Assembly (NCBI GenBank): GCA_964404235.1
Contig: CAYOJL010000001.1
Coordinates: forward strand, 13,826 to 60,837
DNA: 47,012 nt
DNA from: an uncultured bacterium
GTDB lineage: Bacteria > Fidelibacterota > Marinisomatia > Marinisomatales > UBA1611
Reading direction: 5' to 3'
Shown here one piece after another: positions 4,493 through 23,288 of this stretch. Numbering within the stretch: the first letter of the stretch is position 1; each line of letters starts with the position of its first letter. Under the pieces are notes generated by a model, which searched no databases, was not told the DNA's origin, and saw only the letters and a program-made list of their open reading frames with translations. Made by a program: the position numbers and the translations under genes.

Positions 4493-6595
4493 TTGAATTT
4501 TGATTTTTCAAACCCAGGTCAATTATTTTGGCTTCTATTATTTTTTTCTTTTCTAATAATTATTACCTCATTTCAAAGGATAATATTTATAAGAAAAATA
4601 GCACCTATTATATTTTTACGAATAATATCTATAATTATATTATTATTTCTTTTTTTGAATCCTAGATTAACGATAATTAATGAGAATAACCGTGAACTAA
4701 ATTGGAACATATATATTGATCATTCATTAAGCATGGCATATCATTCTAATCCATCAGTTATCACATTGAGATCAGGTATAGATAATATTATTGATAGGTT
4801 GGAAAAGAAAAATATTCCTTTAAATATATTCTCATTTGGTTCTAAGATTAATACGAATTGGGTAAATGGCGAAAAAGAGTTTATAGATGGGTCTACTAAT
4901 ATTGGTAATATTCTCGACCATGTAAGATATAATAATAATTCTTTAGCTGGCTCAATAATATTTACTGATGGGCAGGTTAACCAAGGCCCAGAGATTAATA
5001 TTATTGATGTAGATAATTTAAAACCTATCCATATTATTGGTGTTGGTGATAATAACCCTTTAGTTGATGTTTATATTAATTCCATAGATGCACCCCCTGT
5101 TATTATCAAAGGTGAAAATGCTAATTTAGAAGTTGCTATTTCTTCGCATGGTACTAATAATGAAAGATTAAATGTAACCTTATATCAAGGGAGCAAACTC
5201 TTAGGCTCTAAAGTTATAACAGTATCTGGGGAAGGTAGTATTGATAGGATAAGGTTTATGATAAATCCTGATGAAACTGGAGATATAGAGTATAGGGTTC
5301 AGGTTAATACACTACCTGATGAAATAAATATTAAAAATAATAAACAGATTGTTCCAATTCAGGTATTGAAAAATGAATACAAAATTGCAATGATTACTGG
5401 TGCACCTAATTTTAATAGTAGTATAATAAAGAAGATACTTTCAAAAAATAGCAAATTCAAAATTGACCATTATGTATTTCAACAAGGTAGCTACTCAATA
5501 CCATTAAATTCATTTTGGGATACAAAATATGATCTTATTTTATTTGATAATCATCCAGTAGAAACGAATGCAAAAGATTGGGAATCATTTAGAAGAATAT
5601 TTGCAAAGAAATTATTATCCCACAAATCAAGTCTTGCAATTTTCATGGGTCATGATATTAATAGACAAACATTTGACTCATATTTGAATTTAATGGATTT
5701 GAGTATTAAAGAATCTTTAATCGAGCTTGGCTCTGAGCATAGTTGGGTATTAAATAAAAATTGGGAATCAATATTCCCATTACAGGATATAAATTTTCTT
5801 AATTCTACATTGAATGATTATCCGCCTTTAACTATTGATATGGAGATAGATTCAACTAATGCTGTAGTATTAGCAAATTTCTCAATTTCAAAAGTTAATA
5901 TTCCATTGATTGCTATAGCAGAAAAATCTCCTCTAAGGTGTATGGTGTGGTCTTCACCAGATTTACATAAACTATACTATAAAACTCAAAATAGTGAGCA
6001 CCAAGATTTAACTAATCAACTGTTTATGCCTGTTTTCTCCTGGTTAATGAGAACTGGCAATGGGCAGGATTTTTATTTTAGGGCAAGTAAAAATTCATAC
6101 CAACAAGGTGAAAAAGTAATAATTATTGGTAAGCCTGTAATGCAGACTGAAAGGGCAAAGGAAGGATATATTCATGTTTATAGAGAAGGTTCTAAAATCA
6201 ATACAAAACCAATAATATTTGATACAAAATCAAATATGTATAAAGGACAATTTTGGGCTTCTCAGTCTGGGAGTTTAGATTATGAAATTGAATTAATCTA
6301 TGGAGATAAACCTATAATTGTAAGTAAGGGAAATGTACAAGTACAAGAGAGCCAAATAGAATTAAATCATGTATATTTAAATAAGGAACCATTAATAAAG
6401 TTAGCAGGTATTACTAAGGGTTCTTTCCAAGATTGGGATAATCGTATCTCTATTTTGAGTAAAGTAGTTAGTAAAATAAATAATGAAATAACACAATCAA
6501 GAATTATCTTATATAATAGCTATTGGATGTTCATTTTTATATTACTGCTTTTAACATCTGAATGGATATTAAGAAGAAGGAAAGGAATGATATGA
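4493..6595 (+). CDS. Membrane-anchored VWA-like domain protein
   Basis: Two N-terminal TM helices, MIDAS-like DHSLS and TDG motifs, an Ig-like middle region and a C-terminal TM followed by EWILRRR. Confidence 0.65.
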   Translation: MNFDFSNPGQLFWLLLFFSFLIIITSFQRIIFIRKIAPIIFLRIISIIILLFLFLNPRLTIINENNRELNWNIYIDHSLSMAYHSNPSVITLRSGIDNIIDRLEKKNIPLNIFSFGSKINTNWVNGEKEFIDGSTNIGNILDHVRYNNNSLAGSIIFTDGQVNQGPEINIIDVDNLKPIHIIGVGDNNPLVDVYINSIDAPPVIIKGENANLEVAISSHGTNNERLNVTLYQGSKLLGSKVITVSGEGSIDRIRFMINPDETGDIEYRVQVNTLPDEINIKNNKQIVPIQVLKNEYKIAMITGAPNFNSSIIKKILSKNSKFKIDHYVFQQGSYSIPLNSFWDTKYDLILFDNHPVETNAKDWESFRRIFAKKLLSHKSSLAIFMGHDINRQTFDSYLNLMDLSIKESLIELGSEHSWVLNKNWESIFPLQDINFLNSTLNDYPPLTIDMEIDSTNAVVLANFSISKVNIPLIAIAEKSPLRCMVWSSPDLHKLYYKTQNSEHQDLTNQLFMPVFSWLMRTGNGQDFYFRASKNSYQQGEKVIIIGKPVMQTERAKEGYIHVYREGSKINTKPIIFDTKSNMYKGQFWASQSGSLDYEIELIYGDKPIIVSKGNVQVQESQIELNHVYLNKEPLIKLAGITKGSFQDWDNRISILSKVVSKINNEITQSRIILYNSYWMFIFILLLLTSEWILRRRKGMI

Positions 6596-10446: not shown

Positions 10447-11805
10447 TTATTCAGGATAAATAAAATTATACGATATACCAAATTCACCGGATAGTTTATT
10501 TGAATTTATACCATGATAACTAGGCTCAGATGGACTGAAACCAGCATTGATAAATTCTACCTGATTTATACCTAGTATATATTGTAATCCTTTTATTCTA
10601 GACGTTCTAATAAGTTTTAATTTGATTATTGATCTTTTTTCATATCCATTTGCATATCTTTTATTTTGTATGTCATTATAATTTTCTTGAACCATTGATT
10701 CAGTACTTGCACCACGTTTTGCTAATGAGTAAATGATAGAAAAACTATTGTCTGCTATTGTAAGAAAATAGTCAAAGAGGTATTCCTCTGCATGAGGTCC
10801 TGCCCAAAAGCCTAGTGGTTGACCATGACTATAATAATCATTCACAATATATTTGTGCTTATATATGCGCTGGTCGGTCCAATTATACTCTAAACTAAAA
10901 TTGTCATTAAATAAAATATTTTTAGCGTTATAACCAAATTGCCAAGCAAACCAATTGTGGTTCTTTTTATTAAATAGCCATTCCGGTGTTAATTCGTCCA
11001 TAAAAAACCCCGTATAAATATTTTGTTCTGTTGTTATATCAAAAGATATATCACAGCCCATTTGTATATTATCTGTATCGCCTAAATAGTTTTCAATAGG
11101 ATAAAAAGGTACTACTGGTATCAGATAGTGTATATCTATATCTCTAGTAGCATAAATAACAGTTTCGTTCGCACTTAATTTGATTTTATTATTTAACTTC
11201 CATTCAATTCTATGGGCGGCAATATTTCTGCTTATATTGACAGATCTTTGACTGATGCTATTATTATAAATCTCAGCTCGATTTGAATCCAATAAACCAC
11301 TATTTAAAAAACCATGGAAATAAGATAGACTTAAGTTATTTGTAATTTCCCATTTAAAACCAAATTGTGGATAAGATGGTGCTTTTCCTGATATATGTAA
11401 AGCCCTTTTCCCTGGACCCCAATGTCTGTCAAATTTCCCAAATTCAAAGTTGATATTATTTAAACTATAGATAATTCTTGCATTTGCATACTCTGTCCAA
11501 TATCCATCGGCATCCTTTGATCTATCAATATATGGAAAACTTTGCAAAACTGAAAAATCGAATAAATTTTCTTCTATTTCACCTAGAAATCCAAATTGAA
11601 TATACTCTGCTTCAACTGTCCAGTATTTATTATCATAATAGGCTCCAAGTCCAGCACCGAAAATAGTAATGGGTTTGTTCTTATATACCCAATCACTACC
11701 ATTAGATGAATGGTGAGAAAAAACAATTGGCTTAACTTTAATATTATCCGAAAATAAAAAAGATAAAATAAAAATTGTTAGGATAGATTTATTATTATAA
11801 TGCAT
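10447..11805 (-). CDS. Capsule assembly Wzi-like outer-membrane beta-barrel
   Basis: Signal peptide, FGKFDRHWGPG, AAHRIEW, ETVIY, GDTDNIQ and GQPLGFWAGP motifs, with an aromatic-rich C-terminal strand. Last gene of the polysaccharide locus. Confidence 0.65.
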   Translation of the reverse strand: MHYNNKSILTIFILSFLFSDNIKVKPIVFSHHSSNGSDWVYKNKPITIFGAGLGAYYDNKYWTVEAEYIQFGFLGEIEENLFDFSVLQSFPYIDRSKDADGYWTEYANARIIYSLNNINFEFGKFDRHWGPGKRALHISGKAPSYPQFGFKWEITNNLSLSYFHGFLNSGLLDSNRAEIYNNSISQRSVNISRNIAAHRIEWKLNNKIKLSANETVIYATRDIDIHYLIPVVPFYPIENYLGDTDNIQMGCDISFDITTEQNIYTGFFMDELTPEWLFNKKNHNWFAWQFGYNAKNILFNDNFSLEYNWTDQRIYKHKYIVNDYYSHGQPLGFWAGPHAEEYLFDYFLTIADNSFSIIYSLAKRGASTESMVQENYNDIQNKRYANGYEKRSIIKLKLIRTSRIKGLQYILGINQVEFINAGFSPSEPSYHGINSNKLSGEFGISYNFIYPE

Positions 11806-13781
11806 TATTTACTGCGAGCACCTGAAAACAAAATATTAGATATTGCTCTAGTAAAATAAATTAGATCAGTCAATAATGGCGAATTTTCTTTATTACTTAA
11901 ATAGGACCTTTCACTATTAATAATCTCGTCAAAAGATTTAGGTAGATCAGAATAATACGGTGGAATTAAGCCTGGCTTGAAATTTATTCGTTGTTTTTGT
12001 AGATCTTCAGGATAGAGTTGGAAATAATGTTCACTTAATGCTCTTACACCTACAAGATTGAGATCGCCTTTAAGCCAATTATATAATTGTGGTATTTCGT
12101 CAATAAAATATTTTCTAAAAATTTTCCCCCAAGATGTGATCCGGTAGTCACCTTTCATTTTACCAGACTTATCTAAATGATATTTTTCATAGATGTCACC
12201 TTGTATGAATTCACTATATGGATACATCGTCCTAAACTTATATATATATAATGGTTCACCTTTATAGCCGATCCTTTTCAATTTTACAATAGGTCCATAT
12301 GATGGTGATTCTTCTTCTGATACAGTTTTTTTCTTTTTGCATACGAAATAAAACCTATCTTCAATATTCATCTCATTCAAGATCTCATACCCGCAAAAAG
12401 CTAAACGACCTAATACTTCAGATTTTGACAATACACGATTACTTCCTCTTGTAATGATGAAATAAATTTGTTTAGTTATTGCCAATTTTGGAAAAACTCT
12501 ATGAAATATAAAATGAAATGGAAGAATAATGGAATATAGGAAATGAGGCATCTGAGATCGTAAATGACTTTTAAGTTTTTCAAGTGGGATGAAGTTCCCG
12601 ACTAATAATCCGCCACTCTCAAGTTTTGAATATGCAGTTAATAAATACTCATTAATACGCCTAGAATCATTCAATCGATGCATATTTACTAATAATTCTC
12701 TAGACCTATCAAATAAAAGTTCAATATTAATATTTGAAGATGTATTAAGAATTGTAACCTTTTCTTTTGATATCTTTTCTGTTTTTATTGTTTCCCAGAT
12801 AAAATCTGTAAGTTCTTTCTCATACCCAGATCTAAAAGTTTTAACACTATTAAATAATTCAGACCTATCATAAGAACCATTTTTATTATTTTTTGTCTGA
12901 TTAATCGAGAGCGGTTCTTGGCCATTTATTTTCCCAATTTTATTATCTGAGTTTTCTTTCAGGTGCCCATTTTTTTTTGATTGACCAAAAAAGTAAAGGA
13001 AAAAAGCTATGATCTCTATACCCGAATGTAAGAATCCTGCTTCATAAATGAGCTGAATGGATGCTGAATCTATTCTAAGTGAGTAATAAAAAAATGTTAG
13101 AAAAAGGAAAGTTAAAATTGATGCTTTAATGTAAGGAGCAATTTCATAATAATGGTTGATCGAGTTAGGCTCTTTATACCGATTGGTCAATAAAGTACCA
13201 AGACCCCACGCTGTTATTAATACTAGAAAATTTTGTTCTTGTAATATATCATAATGGAATGCTCCACGTTCTATATATACAATAGTCATATATATAAATA
13301 ATAGTAAGAGAATGCCTGGCATTAACCATTTTATATAGAATTTATTTTTGGTGATGATTTCCTTTGAATCTTCGATATTTATGATTTTTATACCTGATGT
13401 TTTAAGGAAAAATTTCAACAATAAGGCAAGGATCAGCTCATAGAGCACCATGATAGTCATAAAAGTAACCATGAATATCCTAGATATGCTCCATAGATCA
13501 GAAAAGGATATAGTGATTACAACAAAAAGAAGGCTCATTAAAGAAGACCAGAATATTATCCTGAATACAAGCCAAAAAGGTTTTTGTATTAAAGCATTAA
13601 TCTTATCGTAATAAGATGAAAAGATGGACCAGAATACAATAAAAATAAAATAAAGATATAGATAATTATTTTTAGGAAATATCAGGTCAAACTTATTGTA
13701 GTTCATTAATAGAAATACACTAGTGAAAACTGATAGGTCAAGTGACCATAATATCTTTTCAAGTTTGGATTTACTGATCAT
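11805..13781 (-). CDS. Large bacterial sugar transferase (phosphoglycosyl transferase-like) with extended membrane and cytoplasmic domains
   Basis: C-terminal Bac_transf motifs RIGYKG, YKFRTM, DYRITSWG, DEIPQLYNWLKGDLNLVGVR and KPGL, with about 8 N-terminal TM helices. Confidence 0.8.
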   Translation of the reverse strand: MISKSKLEKILWSLDLSVFTSVFLLMNYNKFDLIFPKNNYLYLYFIFIVFWSIFSSYYDKINALIQKPFWLVFRIIFWSSLMSLLFVVITISFSDLWSISRIFMVTFMTIMVLYELILALLLKFFLKTSGIKIINIEDSKEIITKNKFYIKWLMPGILLLLFIYMTIVYIERGAFHYDILQEQNFLVLITAWGLGTLLTNRYKEPNSINHYYEIAPYIKASILTFLFLTFFYYSLRIDSASIQLIYEAGFLHSGIEIIAFFLYFFGQSKKNGHLKENSDNKIGKINGQEPLSINQTKNNKNGSYDRSELFNSVKTFRSGYEKELTDFIWETIKTEKISKEKVTILNTSSNINIELLFDRSRELLVNMHRLNDSRRINEYLLTAYSKLESGGLLVGNFIPLEKLKSHLRSQMPHFLYSIILPFHFIFHRVFPKLAITKQIYFIITRGSNRVLSKSEVLGRLAFCGYEILNEMNIEDRFYFVCKKKKTVSEEESPSYGPIVKLKRIGYKGEPLYIYKFRTMYPYSEFIQGDIYEKYHLDKSGKMKGDYRITSWGKIFRKYFIDEIPQLYNWLKGDLNLVGVRALSEHYFQLYPEDLQKQRINFKPGLIPPYYSDLPKSFDEIINSERSYLSNKENSPLLTDLIYFTRAISNILFSGARSK

Positions 13782-14018
13782 GTAATACGGGTAATAATCT
13801 TAACGGATTAAAGAGAGATAAATTTATCCTAAAAGGGAATATTACGCTGTGCTGAGTATCACAGGATTTTATATAGAACATAGTTGTAAAGACGCAATTA
13901 TCATTTGAATTAATTTAGGTTTTATTAAAAAAATGATAGCGTTTTACATCAATATAGTGGTCTCCCTGTTCGTGGTTAATCTACTTAAATTATTTTAATA
14001 GAACTAAAAAATATTATA

Positions 14019-15089
14019 TTAATTGATTTTGTATTGGAGGTCGGGATCATCTTGTAATTTTTTAGAACTCTCTGGGTAGTTTAATATGAACCATTCAATT
14101 AATCTATTTACATCTATTTTATTTTGTAATGCTATATCTCTTATGCTCTTTTGCCGGACTTTAAAATGATCATCTTCTAGAATTTCTTGTACTTTTTCAA
14201 TAACACCATCTGTTGTACTAAACATGTAGATTAGACTTTCTTTTGCTTGATCTTCTAGGCTTCCTGCTGATAATGAATTAACATAGATACTTGGAGTGCC
14301 TAGAACAGCACATTCTGATGCCATTGTAGCTCCTTCTCCAATAAATAATTCAGCGTAGTATAAAATATTATGAATCTGAGTTGGATCAATAGATAATTTA
14401 TATTTCTGTAGTTGTTTTGGTATCGCGCCTTCTACTGAAAGGAATACTTTTGCCTTTTGTTCCACTAATTTAATTAACCGTTCAAGGTAGGATAGAGAAA
14501 ATCCTTTATGCCCAATGTCATGGCTAGCTCCCCAAGAGACCAAACGTATAATTACAAACTTGTCATTTTCTTTAAGGTTTAGTTTTTTTAAAATCATATT
14601 ATTGGGTTTGAAATAATCTTTTTGCAAATAGCATTGTTCCATATATCCATGGAAACGTAAATGTTTATGTCCATGGTTGCTTTTATAGACTTGAGGTGTA
14701 AATACAATATCAGTAAATGGAAGAAATGATAATATACCTAGTTTAGCGTGTTCAGTATCTGTAAAAGCAATATGGGGTTTTCTAATTATGCTAGACACAT
14801 GGCTAGCATACGGTGAGGCAAAGCTTAGGAATAGATCAGGGTTGAAATCTTTAGCTAATCGAAGCAATAGAAGATCTGCTTTTAACAAATAAAAAAACTT
14901 TCCTATTAAACTATTGCTTCCTATTCCTCTTGAAGTATATGGTATATTATAATTGTCTAGTAATTGGTGCGTAACATCTTTCCTACGTGCAGTTATAAAA
15001 ATGTTATGCCCATCATTTTTTAATTTATTTATGGTGTATCTAAAATAATGTACGTGTGCCGGATGGCCTATATCTATGAAAATTCTCAC
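14019..15089 (-). CDS. DUF354 family GT-B-fold protein (putative glycosyltransferase)
   Basis: IDIGHPAHVHYF, DTEHA and GEGATMASECAVLGTPSI signatures. Confidence 0.8.
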   Translation of the reverse strand: MRIFIDIGHPAHVHYFRYTINKLKNDGHNIFITARRKDVTHQLLDNYNIPYTSRGIGSNSLIGKFFYLLKADLLLLRLAKDFNPDLFLSFASPYASHVSSIIRKPHIAFTDTEHAKLGILSFLPFTDIVFTPQVYKSNHGHKHLRFHGYMEQCYLQKDYFKPNNMILKKLNLKENDKFVIIRLVSWGASHDIGHKGFSLSYLERLIKLVEQKAKVFLSVEGAIPKQLQKYKLSIDPTQIHNILYYAELFIGEGATMASECAVLGTPSIYVNSLSAGSLEDQAKESLIYMFSTTDGVIEKVQEILEDDHFKVRQKSIRDIALQNKIDVNRLIEWFILNYPESSKKLQDDPDLQYKIN

Positions 15090-15125
15090 TATATTTACAA
15101 TCTAATCTTTTTCTGATAAGGAATA

Positions 15126-16244
15126 TTATTTTAGGTCACAAAATATATCAATCAATCTTTTTACTGATGCCTTGATATCATGTTCCGATTTTCTTTCATC
15201 AATAGTATTATTTAATGATAAGATTAATTTCTTATTATTAAGAACTGCACTGATTTTATTTGCTAGCTCTCTTGGGTGATTTGGATCAAATAATAATCCA
15301 TTATTCTTATTTATATATTCAGGTATGCCTCCAACATTCGATCCAATAACTGGTGTCCCACATGCAATTGCTTCCAGGCCTACAAGTCCAAGTGGTTCTT
15401 CCCTTGATGGGAAAATAAATATTGTAGCAATATTATATAATATTCTTAATCCAGACTGATCAATCTTTTTCAAAAATATCACAGAAACTTTTATATCATT
15501 TAAATTATCTTTTGCTGTATTTATTTCAGGTCCTTCAGAGCAGATAATAAGAAATATTTTTTCCAATTCTTTGTCTGTTAAAAGGCTTAATGCATTCACT
15601 AGTATATCAAGACCTTTTCGTTTGATTGCATTTCCAGCAAACAAAAGAACAGTTTTATCATTATGAATATTATAGGTCTTTTTATGGTCCATTATATGTT
15701 TATAATCCATAGGGTAGAATTTTTCATAATCTATGCCCGGAGAGATCACTGTCAACTTATTTGGCGCAGTTCCAGTTAGTTTTAGAACTTTTTTCTTTAT
15801 ATCATTACTATTTACAATTATAATATCAGAGTTTGCAATAGTAACATCATATATCTTTTTATATATCTTGCTAGAAGACTTATAAAGATTGAGGTCTCCG
15901 CCATGAATATGAAGAGCTACTGAGATATTGAAAAAACGTTTTATTAATACTGAAACAAAACCACTTGCCATTACACCATGCGGATTTAATAGGTCATATG
16001 ATCTTATCCTAATTATTAGTCGTAAAATTCCAATTGAGAAAAATGAGTATTTTATTATGTTTGATATAATACCTTTGCTATTGCTGGCATTGCCCCAATA
16101 ATTATAGATTGGGTTATAGTAAACATCTGGCGTTATAGATTGTTTATTTAGTTCCATAACTAAATTTTTAATGAAAATTTGATTTGTTTCATTCTTTTTA
16201 GTTGGATAACTATTACAGACTATTGCGACCTTTGGTATTTTCAT
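15126..16244 (-). CDS. Glycosyltransferase family 4
   Basis: HGGD, KGLDIL and FPSREEPLGLVGLEAIACGTPVIGSNVGGIPE (EX7E) motifs. Confidence 0.9.
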   Translation of the reverse strand: MKIPKVAIVCNSYPTKKNETNQIFIKNLVMELNKQSITPDVYYNPIYNYWGNASNSKGIISNIIKYSFFSIGILRLIIRIRSYDLLNPHGVMASGFVSVLIKRFFNISVALHIHGGDLNLYKSSSKIYKKIYDVTIANSDIIIVNSNDIKKKVLKLTGTAPNKLTVISPGIDYEKFYPMDYKHIMDHKKTYNIHNDKTVLLFAGNAIKRKGLDILVNALSLLTDKELEKIFLIICSEGPEINTAKDNLNDIKVSVIFLKKIDQSGLRILYNIATIFIFPSREEPLGLVGLEAIACGTPVIGSNVGGIPEYINKNNGLLFDPNHPRELANKISAVLNNKKLILSLNNTIDERKSEHDIKASVKRLIDIFCDLK

Positions 16245-16264
16245 AATATTAATTTATAGGAATC

Positions 16265-17512
16265 CTAATTCGAATCATTTTCATTACTTTTTCTAGATAT
16301 TTTACCAAGGAAGAAAAAGAATAAGCTACCAGAGGTTACTGAGTCAATCACATGCCCACCAAAAAAAGCATATAGGAAAAATAGGACAAAGACTAATCCA
16401 TCTCTACTAAATATTTTTGATATATATAAATTGTAGTTTTTAAATAAGATCATAACAAATAGTGCCGTACCTATTATTCCATATTTAAAAAAGAAATCAA
16501 AGAAGTCCATAGATGCATGACGAAAAATAAATTCCCCTCGTTTTTCCCAGAATATATTCTGTCCAGCTAAGCTTACTCCAAAAATGGTTGAATTAAACCC
16601 TTTTAAAGATTCTTCCATTTGTATGTTCATAGATGCATATCGTCTAAAATTTATTGAAGCTACATTATTTAAGGTTTGATTATCATATAATCCACCTACT
16701 CTTTCTGCTGCAGCAATGGATTTACTGATATTTAGCCCAAATCTTTGTTCATAAAGTTCTACTGCCTTATTTGATATATAATCAAACGAAAAAAGGATTA
16801 TAATGGCAAAAATATTATAAAAGATTATTTTATTTAAACTTAAGTAGCGTCTTTTTAGGGCAAAAAATATTGGTATTATGAATCCAAAAATGCTTTTTGA
16901 TGCTATTACAAAACCATTAAAAAATGTTAATAAAATGGGTATAAGATTTTTTCTTAATGCGCCATCCATTAAAAAAAATGTAAAAAATACTAGATTTAAT
17001 ATTGAAACGGGATTTCCTCCTTGAAACATTCCTTTTGAAGTCCCCGAAAACCTGTATGATTCAAGACCAAATCCTAAGAAATAACCAATCATTAGATTTA
17101 ATGTCAAAATAAAGAAATTTATCATGACCACTTTTTTTACCAGAACCTCTGAAAAAGTGAATCGATTTCTAATATAGACTAAAAGGAATATTAAAAATTG
17201 TTGTCTAAGTATATAAGGTATATTTTCAATGATCATTCTCGATGAGGGCATAATGGTGTAATTCAGAAATAAATTGAATATGAAATAAGCAAAAATGATC
17301 AAAGCCAGAAATTCATCGATAAATAATTTTTTCTTTTTTAATTGAATTAAATAATAGAATAATAAAAGAATAAGTATTGGCCCTCTTATCCAATATCCAA
17401 TATTAAATAATGGGTTTGTTATTCCTGAATAGATACGTATAAAACCACTTAGAGCGTCAACAAGTAAGAAAGAATATAGATAATACTTTATAATAACCGA
17501 TAATCTGAGCAT
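16265..17512 (-). CDS. Putative Wzy polysaccharide polymerase / O-antigen ligase-like membrane protein
   Basis: About 10-11 TM helices, a large loop before MDFFDFFFKYGIIG, a C-terminal GGH, and position next to the flippase. Confidence 0.65.
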   Translation of the reverse strand: MLRLSVIIKYYLYSFLLVDALSGFIRIYSGITNPLFNIGYWIRGPILILLLFYYLIQLKKKKLFIDEFLALIIFAYFIFNLFLNYTIMPSSRMIIENIPYILRQQFLIFLLVYIRNRFTFSEVLVKKVVMINFFILTLNLMIGYFLGFGLESYRFSGTSKGMFQGGNPVSILNLVFFTFFLMDGALRKNLIPILLTFFNGFVIASKSIFGFIIPIFFALKRRYLSLNKIIFYNIFAIIILFSFDYISNKAVELYEQRFGLNISKSIAAAERVGGLYDNQTLNNVASINFRRYASMNIQMEESLKGFNSTIFGVSLAGQNIFWEKRGEFIFRHASMDFFDFFFKYGIIGTALFVMILFKNYNLYISKIFSRDGLVFVLFFLYAFFGGHVIDSVTSGSLFFFFLGKISRKSNENDSN

Positions 17513-17524
17513 GTAATAGGATTG

Positions 17525-18841
17525 TTAGTGAACAGTATTAAATGATTTAATTTTAATAATAGCAATTATGATCTGATAGCCAATACCTACCATAATTCCA
17601 ATTGTATAGCCCATAGCAATTCCAACTAACTGAAATTCTGGGACAAATATGATCCAACATATCAATGATGTAATGAGTATGACTATTCCTCCAATATTTG
17701 GATAAATAACATATTTTGTACCTGATAGAAAAGAAACAAATGGAATAGATATCATTCTTATAAATACGCTTGGTAATATAATTATTAAAATAGTACTTCC
17801 TTTTGAGAACTCTTGGCCAAACAGAGATAAAATATTTCCAGCAAAGAAAAATAATGCCAAACAAACTGTAGTTGAGATTGCCAATATTAGCCAGCTTGAC
17901 TGCTTAAATATTTGTATTATTCTCAGTCTATCACCCTCACCAAAAAGTTTAGAAAATTCAGGTAAAAATACTTGGGTGAAAAGTTTTGGTATGAACATAA
18001 GTATGCTAACGATTGAAAGTACTGATGAATATATACCGGCATCCGAGTTACTTAAATACATTCCTATTATTATTACGGAAAGATAACCGGTCCCGGTACT
18101 AGCAACTGTACCAAGCATACTGACCAGGCCATAATTAACAAATTTTTTCATGACATCCTTTTGGTCAAACTGGTCACTTTTTCTCATAGAGAATTTTATT
18201 GATTGAAATCTTTTTATTAGTGTCCTAATACTCAATATAGAGAAAATTGAATAACATAATATATAGCATTCAATAAGTAGAGAAGATTGTCTATTATAAG
18301 TTACATAGCCAATTGCGAAGAGCATTATTACATCAGAGATTATTTCATTGAATGCATATGACCTGACAAGGTCAATACCATATAAAGCACGCCGAAAAAG
18401 GATATAAAAAGACCTCAAAAAAATATAAAGTATAACAGGTATTAAAAGGCCTGGAGGCAAGGAAAAATTACTTGAGAAAAAGGTCCAATTCCATGCAAGG
18501 ACTCCAGCAATAATAGAAAGAATAATTATTGGAGTACCGATCATTATTTTAAATACAAATTGAAAGTGTTCTAGGTTTTTACTACCACGGTATTCAGCAA
18601 GATATTTATTACCAGCACTTCCAAAAAAGTTCGTAACAAATATTGTGATTATTAGACAAAAACTTAAGGTTATGTTTATTGAGCCTAAGATTTCCTTTCC
18701 AAATGTTCGAGCAACTAAGAAATTGAAGGCAAATGGAATGATTCCAACAAAGCCTAAAGCTAAACCCGTGTAGAACGAATTCTCCATTAGGCGTTGGCTA
18801 AAGAAAAAATTATTTCTTTTTTTAACTTTCTCGTCTGTCAA
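17525..18841 (-). CDS. wzx: Wzx-type oligosaccharide flippase (MOP superfamily)
   Basis: About 12 TM helices with ARTFGKE.LG, AGIYS, LPEFSKL and LFGQEF..G motifs. The true start may be the internal Met (MENSF). Confidence 0.8.
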   Translation of the reverse strand: MTDEKVKKRNNFFFSQRLMENSFYTGLALGFVGIIPFAFNFLVARTFGKEILGSINITLSFCLIITIFVTNFFGSAGNKYLAEYRGSKNLEHFQFVFKIMIGTPIIILSIIAGVLAWNWTFFSSNFSLPPGLLIPVILYIFLRSFYILFRRALYGIDLVRSYAFNEIISDVIMLFAIGYVTYNRQSSLLIECYILCYSIFSILSIRTLIKRFQSIKFSMRKSDQFDQKDVMKKFVNYGLVSMLGTVASTGTGYLSVIIIGMYLSNSDAGIYSSVLSIVSILMFIPKLFTQVFLPEFSKLFGEGDRLRIIQIFKQSSWLILAISTTVCLALFFFAGNILSLFGQEFSKGSTILIIILPSVFIRMISIPFVSFLSGTKYVIYPNIGGIVILITSLICWIIFVPEFQLVGIAMGYTIGIMVGIGYQIIIAIIKIKSFNTVH

Positions 18842-20024
18842 GGTAAATAGCGAACGGAATTGCTAATATAAATCCACCAAAAAGTGATAGGATAACAATT
18901 AAGGTGCGTCTTGGTTTAGCTTTTTTAACGGCGGGCTCTGCGGTATCTAAAATATTGATTAAAAGTCTTTCTTTTGCTTCATCAATTTTGGCAATCTCGA
19001 ATTGTTGTCTAAGTGTTATATAAACAGCACGATTTTCTTCCACTGTACTTTCAAGTCTCTCTCTCATCATTTCAAAAGAGGGCGTATCTAATCTTAACGG
19101 GTGATTTTTTCTGAAATCGGTTAGTGAATCTTCTGAATTTTCGGTTTGAGACTTTGCCTCTTCCATTTGTTTTTCAACAAATGTTTTATTTCTGAATGCT
19201 TCCCTTTTTTGTTCTATTGAAATAAAACTTTTAACGTATTCTGCAATATAATTTGCTATATCAGATGCTAGTTGTGGATCTTCCATTAAAACTGTCACTG
19301 AGATTAATCCTGAGATTTCTTCTTTTACAGATATTAGTTCATCTAATTCAAGGATAGCTTCATAGGTTTCTTTATCTATTTTTTCTGATTGGAAACCACC
19401 ACTCGGTAAGAACTCTCTGATCCATTTCATTGGGGAAAAAAAAGATGGCTCATCTAGTTCCCAGTATACAATTAAATTTGATCCATCAGGATATAGTTTT
19501 GTCTTCCACTTTTTAAGGACGATATCCTTTTTTAATCTTCTACTATTTATTATATCAGGAATATTATAGGTTGGCGCACTTGCTAGTCCACCAAGACCAA
19601 ATGATTTTGCAAGACCTTGAAAATCACCTAACACGCCACCAGTCTGACTTAACTCACCTGCTGGATATAGAGAGATTCTTGATTCGAAATAAATTGTTGC
19701 TAGGAGGGAATAAGTGAGCCCGGTCAATGTACAAAATAGAGCAAATTTTGATACGAACTTTCTTTTCCTAAACAATATTTCACCAATTACATTAATATTG
19801 ATTTCGTCATTATCTGTTATAAGGGGTTTCTTATCTTTTTTGATTTTTCCTTTCTCAATATTTACAAGGCCTCTTTTTTTCAATTCTGCAAGACGATTTC
19901 TTAATGTTTTTTCAGTTAAACCATATTCTTTTGCAACCGTTTCCCTTTTATCTGGACTATCTATTATCTCTGGATTCTCCTTGATAATATTTAATATTTT
20001 TTGTTCGTGAGGTGTGAGTTTCAT
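18822..20024 (-). CDS. Polysaccharide co-polymerase (Wzz/GNVR type) with N-terminal winged-HTH extension
   Basis: Wzz N-terminal motif DEIN..IGEILFRKRK then TM1 and YFES...LYP, a periplasmic coiled coil, and ILDTAEPAVKKAKPRR then TM2. There is no kinase domain. Residues 1-58 resemble a wHTH. Confidence 0.8.
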   Translation of the reverse strand: MKLTPHEQKILNIIKENPEIIDSPDKRETVAKEYGLTEKTLRNRLAELKKRGLVNIEKGKIKKDKKPLITDNDEININVIGEILFRKRKFVSKFALFCTLTGLTYSLLATIYFESRISLYPAGELSQTGGVLGDFQGLAKSFGLGGLASAPTYNIPDIINSRRLKKDIVLKKWKTKLYPDGSNLIVYWELDEPSFFSPMKWIREFLPSGGFQSEKIDKETYEAILELDELISVKEEISGLISVTVLMEDPQLASDIANYIAEYVKSFISIEQKREAFRNKTFVEKQMEEAKSQTENSEDSLTDFRKNHPLRLDTPSFEMMRERLESTVEENRAVYITLRQQFEIAKIDEAKERLLINILDTAEPAVKKAKPRRTLIVILSLFGGFILAIPFAIYLDRRES

Positions 20025-21760
20025 TATGATCGTATGATTATTGTTTGTATATATACTAAGAGTACAACGACTTGACCTATTGCTGCTATAAGCTCTTTAG
20101 CAGCATACCATTCATTATATTCTAACCTTTCTGGAATAAAAATTATATCCCCACTATCTATATTTTGGTTTCTTCTCAATTTTAATCTTTGTCCTGTTGT
20201 TGATTTAACTATGAACCTTTTTCTAGATGCATTTTTTGATATACCACCTGCCATATCTATATAGTCATTTGCTTTATTACCTATAACAAATGGATATCGC
20301 CCTGGTGATAAAATCGAGCCTATCACTTCTACATATGGAAAGTATCTTGGCACAAATATGATATCATCGCCTGATAGGAGGTGGTTCTTATCTTGAACAT
20401 CTGCTGAAGATGTTTCCAATGCACCTTTTTCTGTTCTTATTCTAGCTTTTACATATGCTTTTTCTTCAATAGATCTATTTAATTCATCTTTCAGCAATAT
20501 ACGTTCAAGTTCCCGATCTGGGATTTTTGCAATTGTACTATTATTTATAAATATCTTTGAGGAATCAGCATTTGGTAGAAAGCCGCCTGCTTCATAAATA
20601 ATATCATTTATTGTTGTTTCTCCTGCAATTATTGGATATGAGCCAGGATATTTTACCTCACCTATTATTTCAACGACATTATGTGGATTTTCATTATCAA
20701 AATAAGGCACCATAATGTGGTCTTCTGGAAATAATTCTGAATTTTTAGACTGTTCCATTTTTAGATAAAATGATTTCGAATCAAGAGTAGAGTCAACTCT
20801 GGTAATTCTTAGATTATCTACTTTTGCATTATGGTGAAGACCACCTGCAATTAATAAAGCATCATTTATATTGTCATTTACCTTATACTCATACTCGCCT
20901 GGCTTTTGGATTCCACCCTTCACAGTAAAATAACGATTCTTGTAAGGAATATGGATTATATCATTTTGGTGAATATATGGGTTGTATAATTCATTTCCTG
21001 TGACCTTGAATTTTTCTAGATCGACCTTTATGGAGTCATTACCTCGTATTACGGTAATATTCCTTTTAGATAAAAGATTAATATCATTCTTTTGAAGATT
21101 TTGATCAATTCCTAGTTTTCTTTTATAAAAATCATCAACAGCTATTCTGGACCTCATTCCAAATGTCTCATTATATATGGATTCTCCATTGCTTCCACTA
21201 ATTGATTCTTTTTTTCTTTGGTTGTAATCTGAAATAATTTGTTCAAATAGGTCTGATATCCTTGTCATTGGTGTGACCACAAAGTATCCTGCATTATTAA
21301 ATTGTCCAGTCACTAGTACTCTAAATTGTCTAATAACTTCTAATTCTACATTTATTTTGATATTCTTATTCCATGACCTTATCTGTTTTTTTATTTCTTT
21401 TATTAATTCTGATAACGTTAATCTGTTACATTCTACAATCCCAACTGAAGGAATAAGTAGTTTCCCAGTAGGGGATATCACAAGACTATGATCAAAGGTC
21501 TCATTACTTGAAATAATATTGATATGAAATTGATCGCCCGGGCCAACAAAATATTTTTTTGGGTCAACAGGTCTGTCAATTATAAATGTTTCTTGATTCT
21601 TATTATTTTTTCTAACTCCTGATACTATGCCTCCTGATTTAGATATTTGTTTTTGAGCTAGCCTTAAAGAATTAAGATCTAGTGTTTGGGATTGGGCAAC
21701 CCAGTTGATACACACTAATAGTGTTATTAATCTAATAATCATGTTCATTATTTTTGTCAT
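20024..21760 (-). CDS. Polysaccharide export protein with multiple SLBB domains (Wza/KpsD-like OPX)
   Basis: Signal peptide, YFVGPGD Poly_export start, repeated V.G.V..PG.Y...AGG SLBB units and a C-terminal amphipathic helix. Confidence 0.85.
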   Translation of the reverse strand: MTKIMNMIIRLITLLVCINWVAQSQTLDLNSLRLAQKQISKSGGIVSGVRKNNKNQETFIIDRPVDPKKYFVGPGDQFHINIISSNETFDHSLVISPTGKLLIPSVGIVECNRLTLSELIKEIKKQIRSWNKNIKINVELEVIRQFRVLVTGQFNNAGYFVVTPMTRISDLFEQIISDYNQRKKESISGSNGESIYNETFGMRSRIAVDDFYKRKLGIDQNLQKNDINLLSKRNITVIRGNDSIKVDLEKFKVTGNELYNPYIHQNDIIHIPYKNRYFTVKGGIQKPGEYEYKVNDNINDALLIAGGLHHNAKVDNLRITRVDSTLDSKSFYLKMEQSKNSELFPEDHIMVPYFDNENPHNVVEIIGEVKYPGSYPIIAGETTINDIIYEAGGFLPNADSSKIFINNSTIAKIPDRELERILLKDELNRSIEEKAYVKARIRTEKGALETSSADVQDKNHLLSGDDIIFVPRYFPYVEVIGSILSPGRYPFVIGNKANDYIDMAGGISKNASRKRFIVKSTTGQRLKLRRNQNIDSGDIIFIPERLEYNEWYAAKELIAAIGQVVVLLVYIQTIIIRS

Positions 21761-21769
21761 TTCGCCGAG

Positions 21770-21874
21770 GTCTCGACATGAGACAAGGGACTACTATCAC
21801 TCGATCGAATGTGCTATTATATTTTGCCTTTATTAACTAAACTGGGCGCAGTTTATATCGATAGTATTCCTTGT
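21770..21874. promoter_or_regulatory. Candidate structured element in the export-operon leader
   Basis: ACAAGGGACTACTATC (21783-21798) pairs with GATAGTATTCCTTGT (21860-21874). Internal hairpin TAAACTG-GGCG-CAGTTTA (21838-21855) and a further hairpin GTCTC-GACAT-GAGAC (21770-21784). Confidence 0.4.
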
Positions 21875-22022
21875 ATGAATAATCAAACTTATTCTGTAAA
21901 TGGAATTAATCCAAATTATATTTAGCCCGGGCAACTGCCCAAGAAAAACTGGAAAACCTATAAAATTTGGTAATGGATCATTATTCAAAATAAATTAATC
22001 ATATAATAAATGGTAATTGTAA

Positions 22023-23288
22023 ATGATATCGATCAAAAAACTTCGAAAAAATAAAGATTCCTTTCTAGAAAAATTAGCGTTGAAGCAAGATAATACCGAT
22101 TTAGACCTTATATTGTCTTTAGATGAAAAACTACGTGAATTGAAAACATCATCTAGCCAAATGAGAGCTGAAAGGAATAGTGCCTCTGAAGCGATTGGTC
22201 AAGCAAAAAAAGCGGGTGAAGATGCTACTGAAGCAATTAATAATATGAGAGTATTAGGAGAGAATCTAAAAAAGCTAGAGAATGATTTACATGATGTCTC
22301 AGACCAAATGAATGAACTATTATATAAAATTCCCAATCCTCCACATGATAGTTCTCCTGAGGGCCTGGATGAATCTGATAATATTGAAATTAGATCTTGG
22401 GGAAATAAGCCTGAATTTGACTTTATCCCAAAAACACATATTGAAATTGGGGAGAATCTAAAATTGTTTGATTTTAACAGAGGTGCGAAACTTTCTGGAA
22501 GCGGATTTCCTTTATACATTGGACAGGGAGCTATGCTTGAACGTGCCTTAATTAATTCAATGCTGGATCACCACCAGAAGGAATATGATTTTAAAGAAAT
22601 ATTTCCCCCAGTTTTAATGAAAAAGGATTCCATGGTAACAACAGGGCAGTTGCCAAAATTTGAAGAAGATATGTACCATACCGAATTAGATAATCTATAT
22701 CTTGCTCCTACTGCTGAAGTACCTGTAACTAATATACATCGTGAAGAGATCATTGATGAATCAGAACTACCAATCCACTACGTAGCATACTCACCATGTT
22801 TCAGAAGAGAGTCTGGCTCATATGGAAAAGATACAAGAGGTTTATTACGTGTTCATCAATTTAATAAGGTAGAATTGGTAAAGTTCACAACTCCTGAGGC
22901 ATCTTACGATGAATTGGAAGCTCTCACTCATCAGGCTGAATCGATTTTACAGAAATTAGGACTATATTACCGTGTGGTGGAATTATGTACTGGTGATTTA
23001 AGCTTTGCTGCAGCAAAGTGTTACGATCTGGAAATCTGGGCCCCTGGCGAAGGTAAATGGCTTGAAGTGTCATCGTGTAGTAATTTCGAATCATTTCAAT
23101 CACGTCGTGGAAACATAAGGTATAGAGATTCCGATAATAATGTAAAGTTCTTACATACATTAAATGGTTCTGGAGTTGCTACACCCAGACTAATGGTTGC
23201 TTTAATTGAAACTTATCAAAATGAAGATGGTACTATAAGTTTTCCAGAAAAAGTTGCTGATTTTTTAGGTTTTCAGGAGATTTCATAA
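22023..23288 (+). CDS. serS: Serine--tRNA ligase
   Basis: N-terminal coiled arm, TGQLPKF, PTAEVP, CFRRESG, GLLRVHQFNKVE, EVSSCSN and HTLNGSG motifs. Confidence 0.97.
   Translation: MISIKKLRKNKDSFLEKLALKQDNTDLDLILSLDEKLRELKTSSSQMRAERNSASEAIGQAKKAGEDATEAINNMRVLGENLKKLENDLHDVSDQMNELLYKIPNPPHDSSPEGLDESDNIEIRSWGNKPEFDFIPKTHIEIGENLKLFDFNRGAKLSGSGFPLYIGQGAMLERALINSMLDHHQKEYDFKEIFPPVLMKKDSMVTTGQLPKFEEDMYHTELDNLYLAPTAEVPVTNIHREEIIDESELPIHYVAYSPCFRRESGSYGKDTRGLLRVHQFNKVELVKFTTPEASYDELEALTHQAESILQKLGLYYRVVELCTGDLSFAAAKCYDLEIWAPGEGKWLEVSSCSNFESFQSRRGNIRYRDSDNNVKFLHTLNGSGVATPRLMVALIETYQNEDGTISFPEKVADFLGFQEIS

Follow-up and report, generated by a model that had tools for sequence, protein, structure and literature searches.

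The matching of synthesis to use in capsule and exopolysaccharide machines is known mainly through the tyrosine-kinase cycling of Wzc and through separate regulators. Here we describe a gene that joins a component of such a machine to a putative DNA-binding domain. It lies in a 47 012-nt stretch of DNA (hereafter the window; contig CAYOJL010000001.1 of assembly GCA_964404235.1) from an uncultured bacterium of the Marinisomatales, and it encodes a polysaccharide co-polymerase (PCP) with an N-terminal helix-turn-helix (HTH) domain, a combination that we call HTH-PCP. The described PCPs Wzc, Wzz, and KpsE (7NHR, 9R6B, 8BHW, and 8TSH) share with it two transmembrane (TM) helices, a periplasmic hairpin domain, the GNVR/Wzz motifs, and pairing with Wza and a Wzx/Wzy cluster. 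HTH-PCP differs from the bacterial tyrosine (BY) kinases Wzc and Etk in lacking a C-terminal tyrosine kinase, and from PCPs in having a 55-residue HTH domain and a tether where these usually have a short cytoplasmic N-terminus. A sequence-only reading of the window had drawn attention to this architecture as an uncharacterized one, and we found no published description of the fusion in open-access papers and preprints.

On the regulatory side, ToxR, TcpP, and CadC have an OmpR-type winged helix, one TM helix, and a periplasmic sensor. HTH-PCP shares with these proteins, and with TfoS and ChiS, a cytoplasmic DNA-binding-type domain, a membrane anchor, and a periplasmic remainder, but it has an Lrp/AsnC-like HTH, two TM helices, and an export-machine component in the periplasm. 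The ToxR/CadC-like topology proposed in the sequence-only reading thus holds for the cytoplasmic domain on an anchor, but not for the type of fold or the number of TM helices, and the resemblance is topological only. Lrp/AsnC proteins show their HTH domains on an oligomeric disc, and Lrp sites are AT-rich and ∼15 bp long. Lrp/AsnC proteins and the winged HTH (wHTH) of Csa3 are the best sequence and structure matches of residues 1–55, whereas HTH-PCP has a membrane PCP in place of the RAM/ACT-like ligand/oligomerization domain, and its candidate site is a G/C 8-mer; lacking a RAM domain, it falls outside the Lrp family of regulators. RodZ likewise has a cytoplasmic N-terminal HTH, a membrane anchor, and a periplasmic domain, its HTH binding MreB; with its XRE-type HTH, single TM helix, and role in the cell-shape machinery, it is closer to the XRE-type PCP fusions described below. 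PutA and other trigger enzymes combine a membrane-associated enzyme and a regulator of its own operon in one polypeptide; PutA is peripheral, has a ribbon-helix-helix domain, and shuttles between DNA and membrane, whereas HTH-PCP is integral to the membrane. Transmembrane regulators of the ToxR, TcpP, CadC, TfoS, and ChiS kind are reported to act on DNA while membrane-bound (PMC5430869, PMC10629549, and PMC11856585).

The elements of the gene that the sequence-only reading had listed (the open reading frame (ORF), TAATG overlap, linker, Wzz motif, TM1, proline-rich segment, and TM2) were all found where it had placed them:

18822..20024, minus strand: HTH-PCP gene (protein P0001), an unbroken ORF of 400 codons
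19860..20024, minus strand: predicted three-helix Lrp/AsnC-type HTH, residues 1–55, with the recognition helix at residues 38–50 (EKTLRNRLAELKK)
19809..19859, minus strand: Lys-rich linker, residues 56–72, with unconserved columns, predicted local distance difference test (pLDDT) scores <65, and predicted disorder
Residues 73–77: DEINI Wzz motif, before TM1
19686..19745, minus strand: TM1, residues ∼94–113 (model helix 88–109)
18903..19685, minus strand: predicted periplasmic PCP domain, with a long helical hairpin (250–361) and a proline-rich AEPAVKKAKP segment
18840..18902, minus strand: TM2, residues ∼375–395, with the end of the protein 5 residues later

Residues 1–55 are, by modeling, an HTH-fold domain of Lrp/AsnC-like type. 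AlphaFold2, run on residues 1–75 with an alignment of 15 diverse N-termini, predicts helices at 5–16, 24–33, and 38–50, with block-mean pLDDT of 90–93 over residues 11–50. In a full-library structural alignment, the N-terminal domains of Lrp/AsnC proteins came out on top (Z 5.5–6.1, root-mean-square deviation ∼2.1 Å over 51–57 residues), and eight of the top 10 matches have the Lrp/AsnC fold, the enzyme AhbA/B being among the eight. The top Foldseek rows were Lrp, MarR, and LexA, with probabilities of up to 0.96. A profile of the 15 N-termini matched the Csa3 wHTH best (E = 3e-6), followed by GerE, Lrp/AsnC, and MecI. Pfam HTH matches to residues 1–60 of the window protein are all below threshold (LexA_DNA_bind 5.5e-4, HTH_Mga 5.9e-4, HTH_24 1.9e-3, and Rrf2 9e-3); HTH_24 reaches 18.2 bits against a gathering score of 21.9, which two relatives pass (P0226 with 23.6 and P0267 with 24.1 bits). 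The same protein gave no XRE-type match in Pfam and no Trans_reg_C (OmpR/PhoB-type) match at E ≤ 0.01, and a RAM/ACT-like effector domain is absent, residues 73–400 being PCP. Conservation of the domain ends at G52 and two hydrophobic residues, and the charge of segment 1–72 is positive (18 K/R versus 12 D/E). Of the winged HTH proposed earlier, the HTH fold is therefore retained and the wing is not, since the AlphaFold2 model has no β-strand after helix 3. Matches in the ESM Atlas (scores 0.79–0.81) are to be taken as leads only; one row, naming a “MarR family EPS-associated regulator”, was set aside after NCBIfam gave no confirmation.

By predicted fold and motifs, the rest of the protein is a kinase-less PCP. 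The GNVR match (PF13807, residues 323–393) passes its cut-off with 36.4 versus 27.7 bits; the Wzz match (PF02706, residues 73–126) scores 19.9 bits against a cut-off of 25.5 in the window protein, and 33.7 bits (P0122) or 29.4–52.8 bits (P0124, P0218, P0226, P0245, and P0267) in relatives. None of the NCBIfam PCP models exceeded its cut-off for the window protein. The AlphaFold2 model of the full-length protein (mean pLDDT 73) comprises TM1, a mixed base domain, hairpin helices 250–307 and 315–361, and TM2. Foldseek with the PCP model retrieved Wzc (9R6B) at E = 3.6e-9, as well as WzzE, KpsE, and FepE, among 35 matches at E ≤ 1e-3, and a profile of 19 orthologues found E. coli Wzc in the PDB at E = 1.4e-12. 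As the sequence-only reading had noted, there is no kinase domain, because the protein stops 5 residues past TM2; no P-loop family matched it either. The source genome (2.23 Mb in 185 contigs, 88% complete, stated contamination 1.5%) contains a single GNVR gene, and its best score for the BY-kinase model TIGR01007 is 55.8 bits versus a cut-off of 108. The topology of PCPs and the K/R-rich segments flanking TM1 would place the N-terminus on the cytoplasmic side, and assembly into a ring is expected by analogy with the solved Wzc and Wzz.

The fusion of the two parts, judged by its conservation among relatives, is genuine and under selection. In contigs from one genome per species, 113 stretches encode the HTH domain, of which 80 were kept as loci. 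An HTH-bearing ORF is present in 79 of the 80, and 72 of these are full-length HTH-PCPs, with five others truncated where the fetched stretch ends, and two short (L003 and L080). In L003 (6001–6716), from a single-cell assembly, the HTH ORF is only 77 aa long and has an inverted piece of a flippase gene behind it, which may reflect rearrangement or chimeric assembly. In the window, the ATG of HTH-PCP overlaps the TAA of the upstream wza-like gene as TAATG; 70 of the 79 loci have the stop codon of Wza at a distance of −4 to +31 nt from the HTH start, and for six of the remaining nine there is no upstream sequence, which bears out the earlier suggestion that the TAATG marks the real, translationally coupled start. 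The recognition helix singled out in that reading is still more constrained: EKTLRNR is identical in 79/79 loci, while the domain as a whole is only ∼50% identical on average. These invariant residues make up the basic face of the predicted recognition helix. Of the 120 best homologues listed, almost every one has a length of 396–408 aa, with 93–100% query coverage and 63–98% identity, and conservation within the protein is highest in the N-terminal region. The best matches carry the names Marinimicrobia or Neomarinimicrobiota. At NCBI, one member is named simply “winged helix-turn-helix transcriptional regulator”, and members appear elsewhere as GNVR proteins or tyrosine kinases, which calls for caution in annotation.

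A search for the HTH–PCP architecture across the phylum, as the sequence-only reading had suggested, found the domain in 103 of 401 sampled genomes (59/190 of the high-quality ones), almost all of them from families f1–f16 of the window's order; it was not found in genomes of f17 (0/38), f3 (0/37), or f26 (0/33). Wherever a domain match falls in a long open frame, that frame measures 390–600 aa, and the fusion partner is always a PCP. No stand-alone homologue was seen: the 59 shorter hits, mostly on short contigs, look like fragments, and all six short entries inspected on longer contigs continue into PCP or Wza sequence. Outside the order, the domain occurs in two genomes (G242 and G141), whose contigs reach only 127–1060 nt upstream of the gene; one contig of another genome (G237:C145) likewise ends shortly upstream of its HTH gene. 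Orthologues without the domain do exist, 327–356 aa long and starting near residue 72, in families outside the window's order, and all 20 HTH-less loci that were fetched are from outside it. The sequence-only reading had named, as grounds for rejecting its proposal, orthologues that all start near DEIN with an unconserved extension; the extension is conserved in 79/79 loci.

In a tree of PCP cores with the HTH removed (104 rows, quick search, LG+G4, several long branches flagged), a “long” clade of 34 rows, all with the Lrp-type HTH, stands apart from a clade of 70, in which 37 HTH-bearing rows (support 86, not starred) are nested among HTH-less and XRE-type rows. At least two changes in HTH presence are needed on this tree. 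Operons of the long clade have the layout unknown–ugd–rmlC–rmlB–(rmlA)–wza–HTH-PCP. Other related PCPs of the same order carry, at the same position and directly after the Wza gene, an XRE-type HTH that is Pfam-significant (HTH_3); these are P0193-like in L147–L149 (genomes G191, G160, and G059) and P0164-like in L151, and genome G237 has both kinds of HTH. L147–L149 share an identical 33-nt block just upstream of wza with the palindrome TTGAC-N5-GTCAA, which overlaps a TTGACA...TAATTT promoter-like pair. The XRE-type PCPs and this palindrome may form a second, independent pair of co-polymerase HTH and operator.

The Lrp-type HTH-PCP loci have a palindrome of their own, GCCCGGGC, which we regard as a candidate operator. 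The relevant features upstream of HTH-PCP are:

20024..21760, minus strand: wza-like outer-membrane export gene, with Pfam Poly_export and two SLBB domains
21536..21543: palindrome copy 2, GCCCGGGC, in the Gly-Pro-Gly codons (GGC CCG GGC) of the GPGD motif of wza
21749..21880, minus strand: conserved 5′ leader of the wza operon, a candidate for RNA structure, ∼130 nt with helices that covary
21884..21915, minus strand: promoter-like TTTG-N20-TAAGTTTG, −33/−7 elements in conserved columns
21925..21940: palindrome copy 1, GGGC-N4-GCCCGGGC (palindrome itself 21925–21932), in the serS–wza intergenic region

The two copies, 389 bp apart, are the only ones in the window, where 0.01 would be expected. 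Two stretches had been proposed earlier as targets of the HTH; one (21761–22022) contains copy 1 and the other (13782–14018) contains no copy, and the local repeats in both are only weak AT-rich ones. The genome as a whole has five copies, the three outside the HTH-PCP locus being on contigs of 53–61% GC (C82, C105, and C109 of the source genome, G000), as compared to 33.5% for the window contig; these three contigs are probably foreign or assembly contamination.

In an alignment of the serS–wza intergenic region from the window and 28 other loci, GCCCGGGC is invariant in 29/29, usually following GGGC-N3/4. The region is 219–287 nt long in 24 of the 28 and 369–414 nt in L017, L024, L061, and L029. 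In L017, L024, and L061, ∼50 nt of the added length separates the palindrome from the promoter-like elements; the palindrome is itself longer in these three, for example a perfect one of 18 bp in L024. Over all 80 HTH-PCP loci (767 kb), there are 99 copies of GCCCGGGC in 62 loci, as compared to 0–10 copies for each of the other 15 all-G/C 8-mer palindromes; none occurs in the 20 HTH-less PCP loci (112 kb) or in the five XRE-type loci (30 kb). Among HTH-PCP loci of at least 9 kb, 45 of 48 show a copy in the 6 kb preceding the HTH start, and the three loci without an upstream copy have ACCCGGGC at homologous ugd codons.

Coding copies of the palindrome are found at different positions in the different operon layouts. 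The GPGD motif of Wza is universal, and is spelled GGC CCG GGC in 27 of 30 loci with wza heading the operon, versus 1/35 other HTH-PCP loci and 0/16 HTH-less loci. In ugd-headed operons, the palindrome is in ugd (∼+146, +309, and +711 to +766) or in rmlB (∼+877 to +899). A third layout, with rmlA before wza, has GGGC-N3-GCCCGGGC in the Wza signal peptide (L030, L043, L050, L053, L062, L067, L069, and L078; ∼+51 of wza), where it encodes G-x-A-R-A-Q with the Arg codon CGG in loci of 28–35% GC. The coding copies are read in three different frames. In the window, ugd and rmlB lie outside the HTH-PCP operon and have CCT GGA at the two Pro-Gly motifs checked, with no CCCGGG; the only other CCCGGG of the window is outside both genes. 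Extra copies of GCCCGGGC in genomes G403 and G404 are mostly within unrelated ORFs and suggest no regulon.

To judge from these alignments and counts, the palindrome is clearly under nucleotide-level selection that is specific to HTH-PCP operons. An invertible promoter segment flanked by the two copies was considered and rejected, as 29 assemblies all show one orientation and the flanks differ; restriction-site or rare-codon effects cannot account for the non-coding copy. We infer that the HTH reads the palindrome, and binding is accordingly a prediction: the HTH is the only DNA-binding-type domain in the conserved cluster (a Pfam scan of the cluster proteins found no other), the invariance of its recognition helix parallels that of the site, and GCCCGGGC accompanies the HTH in two deeply separated PCP clades with different operon layouts. 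DNA binding is what the Lrp-type and XRE-type HTH classes have in common.

The reading we favor, with a probability of roughly 0.5, is that HTH-PCP is a membrane-tethered autoregulator of its own operon. HTH-PCP would be a working inner-membrane co-polymerase of Wzx/Wzy-type export and the partner of the Wza encoded upstream, with both PCP ends in the cytoplasm and the HTH on a flexible Lys-rich tether. The HTH would bind DNA sequence-specifically at (G)CCCGGGC palindromes. Since PCPs assemble into rings, several tethered HTH domains could occupy both palindromes, on either side of the operon start, and the promoter would be looped or anchored at the membrane, with transcription of wza, the PCP gene, and the downstream genes set by HTH binding. 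As to sign, we lean toward negative autoregulation of machine number, by looping or occlusion; as an alternative to looping, the locus might be anchored where its products insert, and ring assembly or the state of engagement could modulate binding. We hold more tentatively, and think rather unlikely as it stands, a stronger form in which this ring component doubles as a membrane-embedded Lrp-like DNA organizer that grips palindromes 389 bp apart: the promoter, the leader, and the first 70 codons would lie between the two, the operon would be looped or anchored at the site of product insertion, and machine number or engagement would feed back directly on transcription.

If autoregulation by HTH-PCP is correct, a single protein would connect a machine that spans the envelope to the promoter of that machine. 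On the stronger form, and given that PCPs of the phylum have taken up two or more unrelated classes of HTH (Lrp-type and XRE-type), the co-polymerase as transcription factor would be a recurrent and undescribed regulatory principle of polysaccharide export. What is new here is a concrete and testable candidate operator; the defined 8-bp site allows the idea to be tested in vitro despite the organisms being uncultured. The ocean harbors Marinisomatota in abundance, and the polysaccharides on the surface of these bacteria matter for attachment to particles and for carbon export.

Several points weigh against autoregulation. The structural scores of the HTH are modest (none at E ≤ 1e-3 with Foldseek, Z below 8), no wing is predicted, and protein-binding and enzyme HTH-like folds (ESCRT-II and AhbA/B) are among the matches, so that the fold alone is no proof of DNA binding. 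The half-site centers of an 8-bp palindrome are 4 bp apart, as compared to the spacing of ∼10 bp typical of HTH pairs. In raw numbers the co-occurrence is strong, with an upstream copy in 51 of 55 HTH loci and in 0/22 without the Lrp-type HTH, yet the table reduces to two phylogenetically independent contrasts, which point in the same direction, and a sign test needs more than two to be significant. None of the 20 HTH-less loci belongs to a family of the window's order, leaving the XRE-type loci as the sole within-order controls; the palindrome might accordingly be a trait of the order, with another factor as its reader. In long-clade operons, the copies are mostly coding, and the genome-wide counts in two genomes of this clade equal those of a control word (13 versus 13; 5 versus 5), so that enrichment there is local only. 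The promoter is a putative one, assigned by the likeness of the TTTG/TAnnTTTG-like elements to the consensus of Bacteroidetes-type promoters.

The structural matches could also suit a RodZ-like protein adaptor, which would recruit a partner from the cytoplasm (such as the initiating sugar transferase, another glycosyltransferase, or a protein of the cytoskeleton or of cell division) to the co-polymerase ring, with the palindrome unrelated. ESCRT-II (Z 5.6 and 5.3) and AhbA/B (Z 5.8) are among those matches, RodZ has the same order of cytoplasmic HTH, TM helix, and periplasmic domain, the invariant EKTLRNR surface fits a protein partner equally well as a DNA site, and the missing wing is in keeping with such a role. 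Two unrelated HTH classes on the same PCP end are, however, hard to square with one partner; the invariant residues form the basic face of the predicted recognition helix; and a palindrome that is specific to the locus in two PCP clades would be left without a reader. We consider an adaptor unlikely, though it fares best among the alternatives.

Slightly less probable again is that the HTH is a sequence-tolerant tether of nucleoid or transcript, in the manner of transertion, with GCCCGGGC acting as RNA (e.g. by pairing of the two copies or as a GGGC-N3/4-GCCC hairpin) or as the site of another protein. The Lys-rich linker and basic domain would serve such a tether, transcription covers copy 2 and every copy of the ugd-headed operons, GGGC-N3/4 often precedes copy 1 so that a hairpin is possible, the conserved structured leader sits between both copies, and the link between HTH and palindrome rests on only the two contrasts given above. 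RNA pairing would nonetheless tolerate compensatory change, whereas the same 8-mer is fixed in non-coding DNA, in three frames, and in two layouts; we prefer a protein reader to RNA–RNA pairing because one sequence is kept throughout. Copy 1 moreover lies upstream of the conserved promoter-like elements, and unspecific binding would have no need of an invariant recognition helix.

Release of the HTH by proteolysis in the linker, yielding a small soluble transcription factor through which turnover of or damage to the PCP would signal to the operon, seems improbable. Residues 56–72 do form an unconserved, low-confidence linker between conserved modules, and cleavage release is reported for other membrane-bound factors; but the cluster has no conserved protease gene, none of the 59 short hits stood out as a stand-alone homologue, and a freed 55-residue monomer with no dimerization domain would be expected to bind a palindrome poorly. 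We dismiss an annotation artefact, in which the first 58–72 codons would not be translated with the PCP or would be a separate small gene, for although a 58-aa entry (P0274) is identical to residues 1–58 and HTH-less orthologues begin near residue 72, 72 full-length relatives share the unbroken frame of the window protein, no Met occurs between residues 2 and 199, 70/79 loci have the start right at the Wza stop, and no region of the protein is more conserved than the N-terminus.

Between copy 1 and wza, the promoter-like elements lie 9 nt downstream of the palindrome, which is ∼13 bp upstream of the −33 element; a general scan for promoters and terminators was uninformative (59 promoter-like sites versus 65 expected). 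The start of wza is listed as the ATG at 21760, yet relatives align to a second in-frame ATG at 21748, four codons on, which is probably the true start. The leader that precedes it, aligned between the window and the homologous stretch of L001–L061, has 67.6% of cells paired in a hand-drawn structure, as compared to 32–42% in slid controls, and a covariation score of 0.19 (controls ≤0.095; 0/500 shuffles reach 0.19), with 15 pairs that show changes on both sides. Its stems include a long-range pairing of CAAGGAATACTATCGA with GATAGT..CCTTG and a terminal hairpin just before the start codon. RNAalifold predicted no pairs on 22 leaders, and an Rfam scan of 21700–22060 at E ≤ 10 gave chance-level rows (best E = 0.48, 19.6 bits versus a 100-bit cut-off). 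The leader may be an unnamed cis-regulatory RNA of polysaccharide operons.

Downstream of HTH-PCP, the remaining Wzx/Wzy-type cluster (11805..18841, minus strand) comprises the following genes, identified with Pfam:

17525–18841, minus strand: Wzx-type flippase
16265–17512, minus strand: Wzy-like membrane protein
15126–16244, minus strand: GT4 glycosyltransferase
14019–15089, minus strand: DUF354 protein
11805–13781, minus strand: Bac_transf sugar transferase

The gene serS is transcribed divergently from wza. Farther off, the plus strand has an operon of a 700-aa protein with no Pfam match, ugd, rmlC, rmlB, and rmlA. The first of these proteins (4493–6595, plus strand) belongs to a family of 650–700 aa with no Pfam match that precedes ugd in both layouts; the window protein and that of L044 (3–1967) are 32% identical (E = 6e-115). 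L044 has three more proteins without a Pfam match, of 480–540 aa, downstream of HTH-PCP. The cluster in the window is closed by an ORF of 452 aa (10447–11805, minus strand), also with no Pfam match, which has weak relatives (26–29% identity) near some other HTH-PCP loci.

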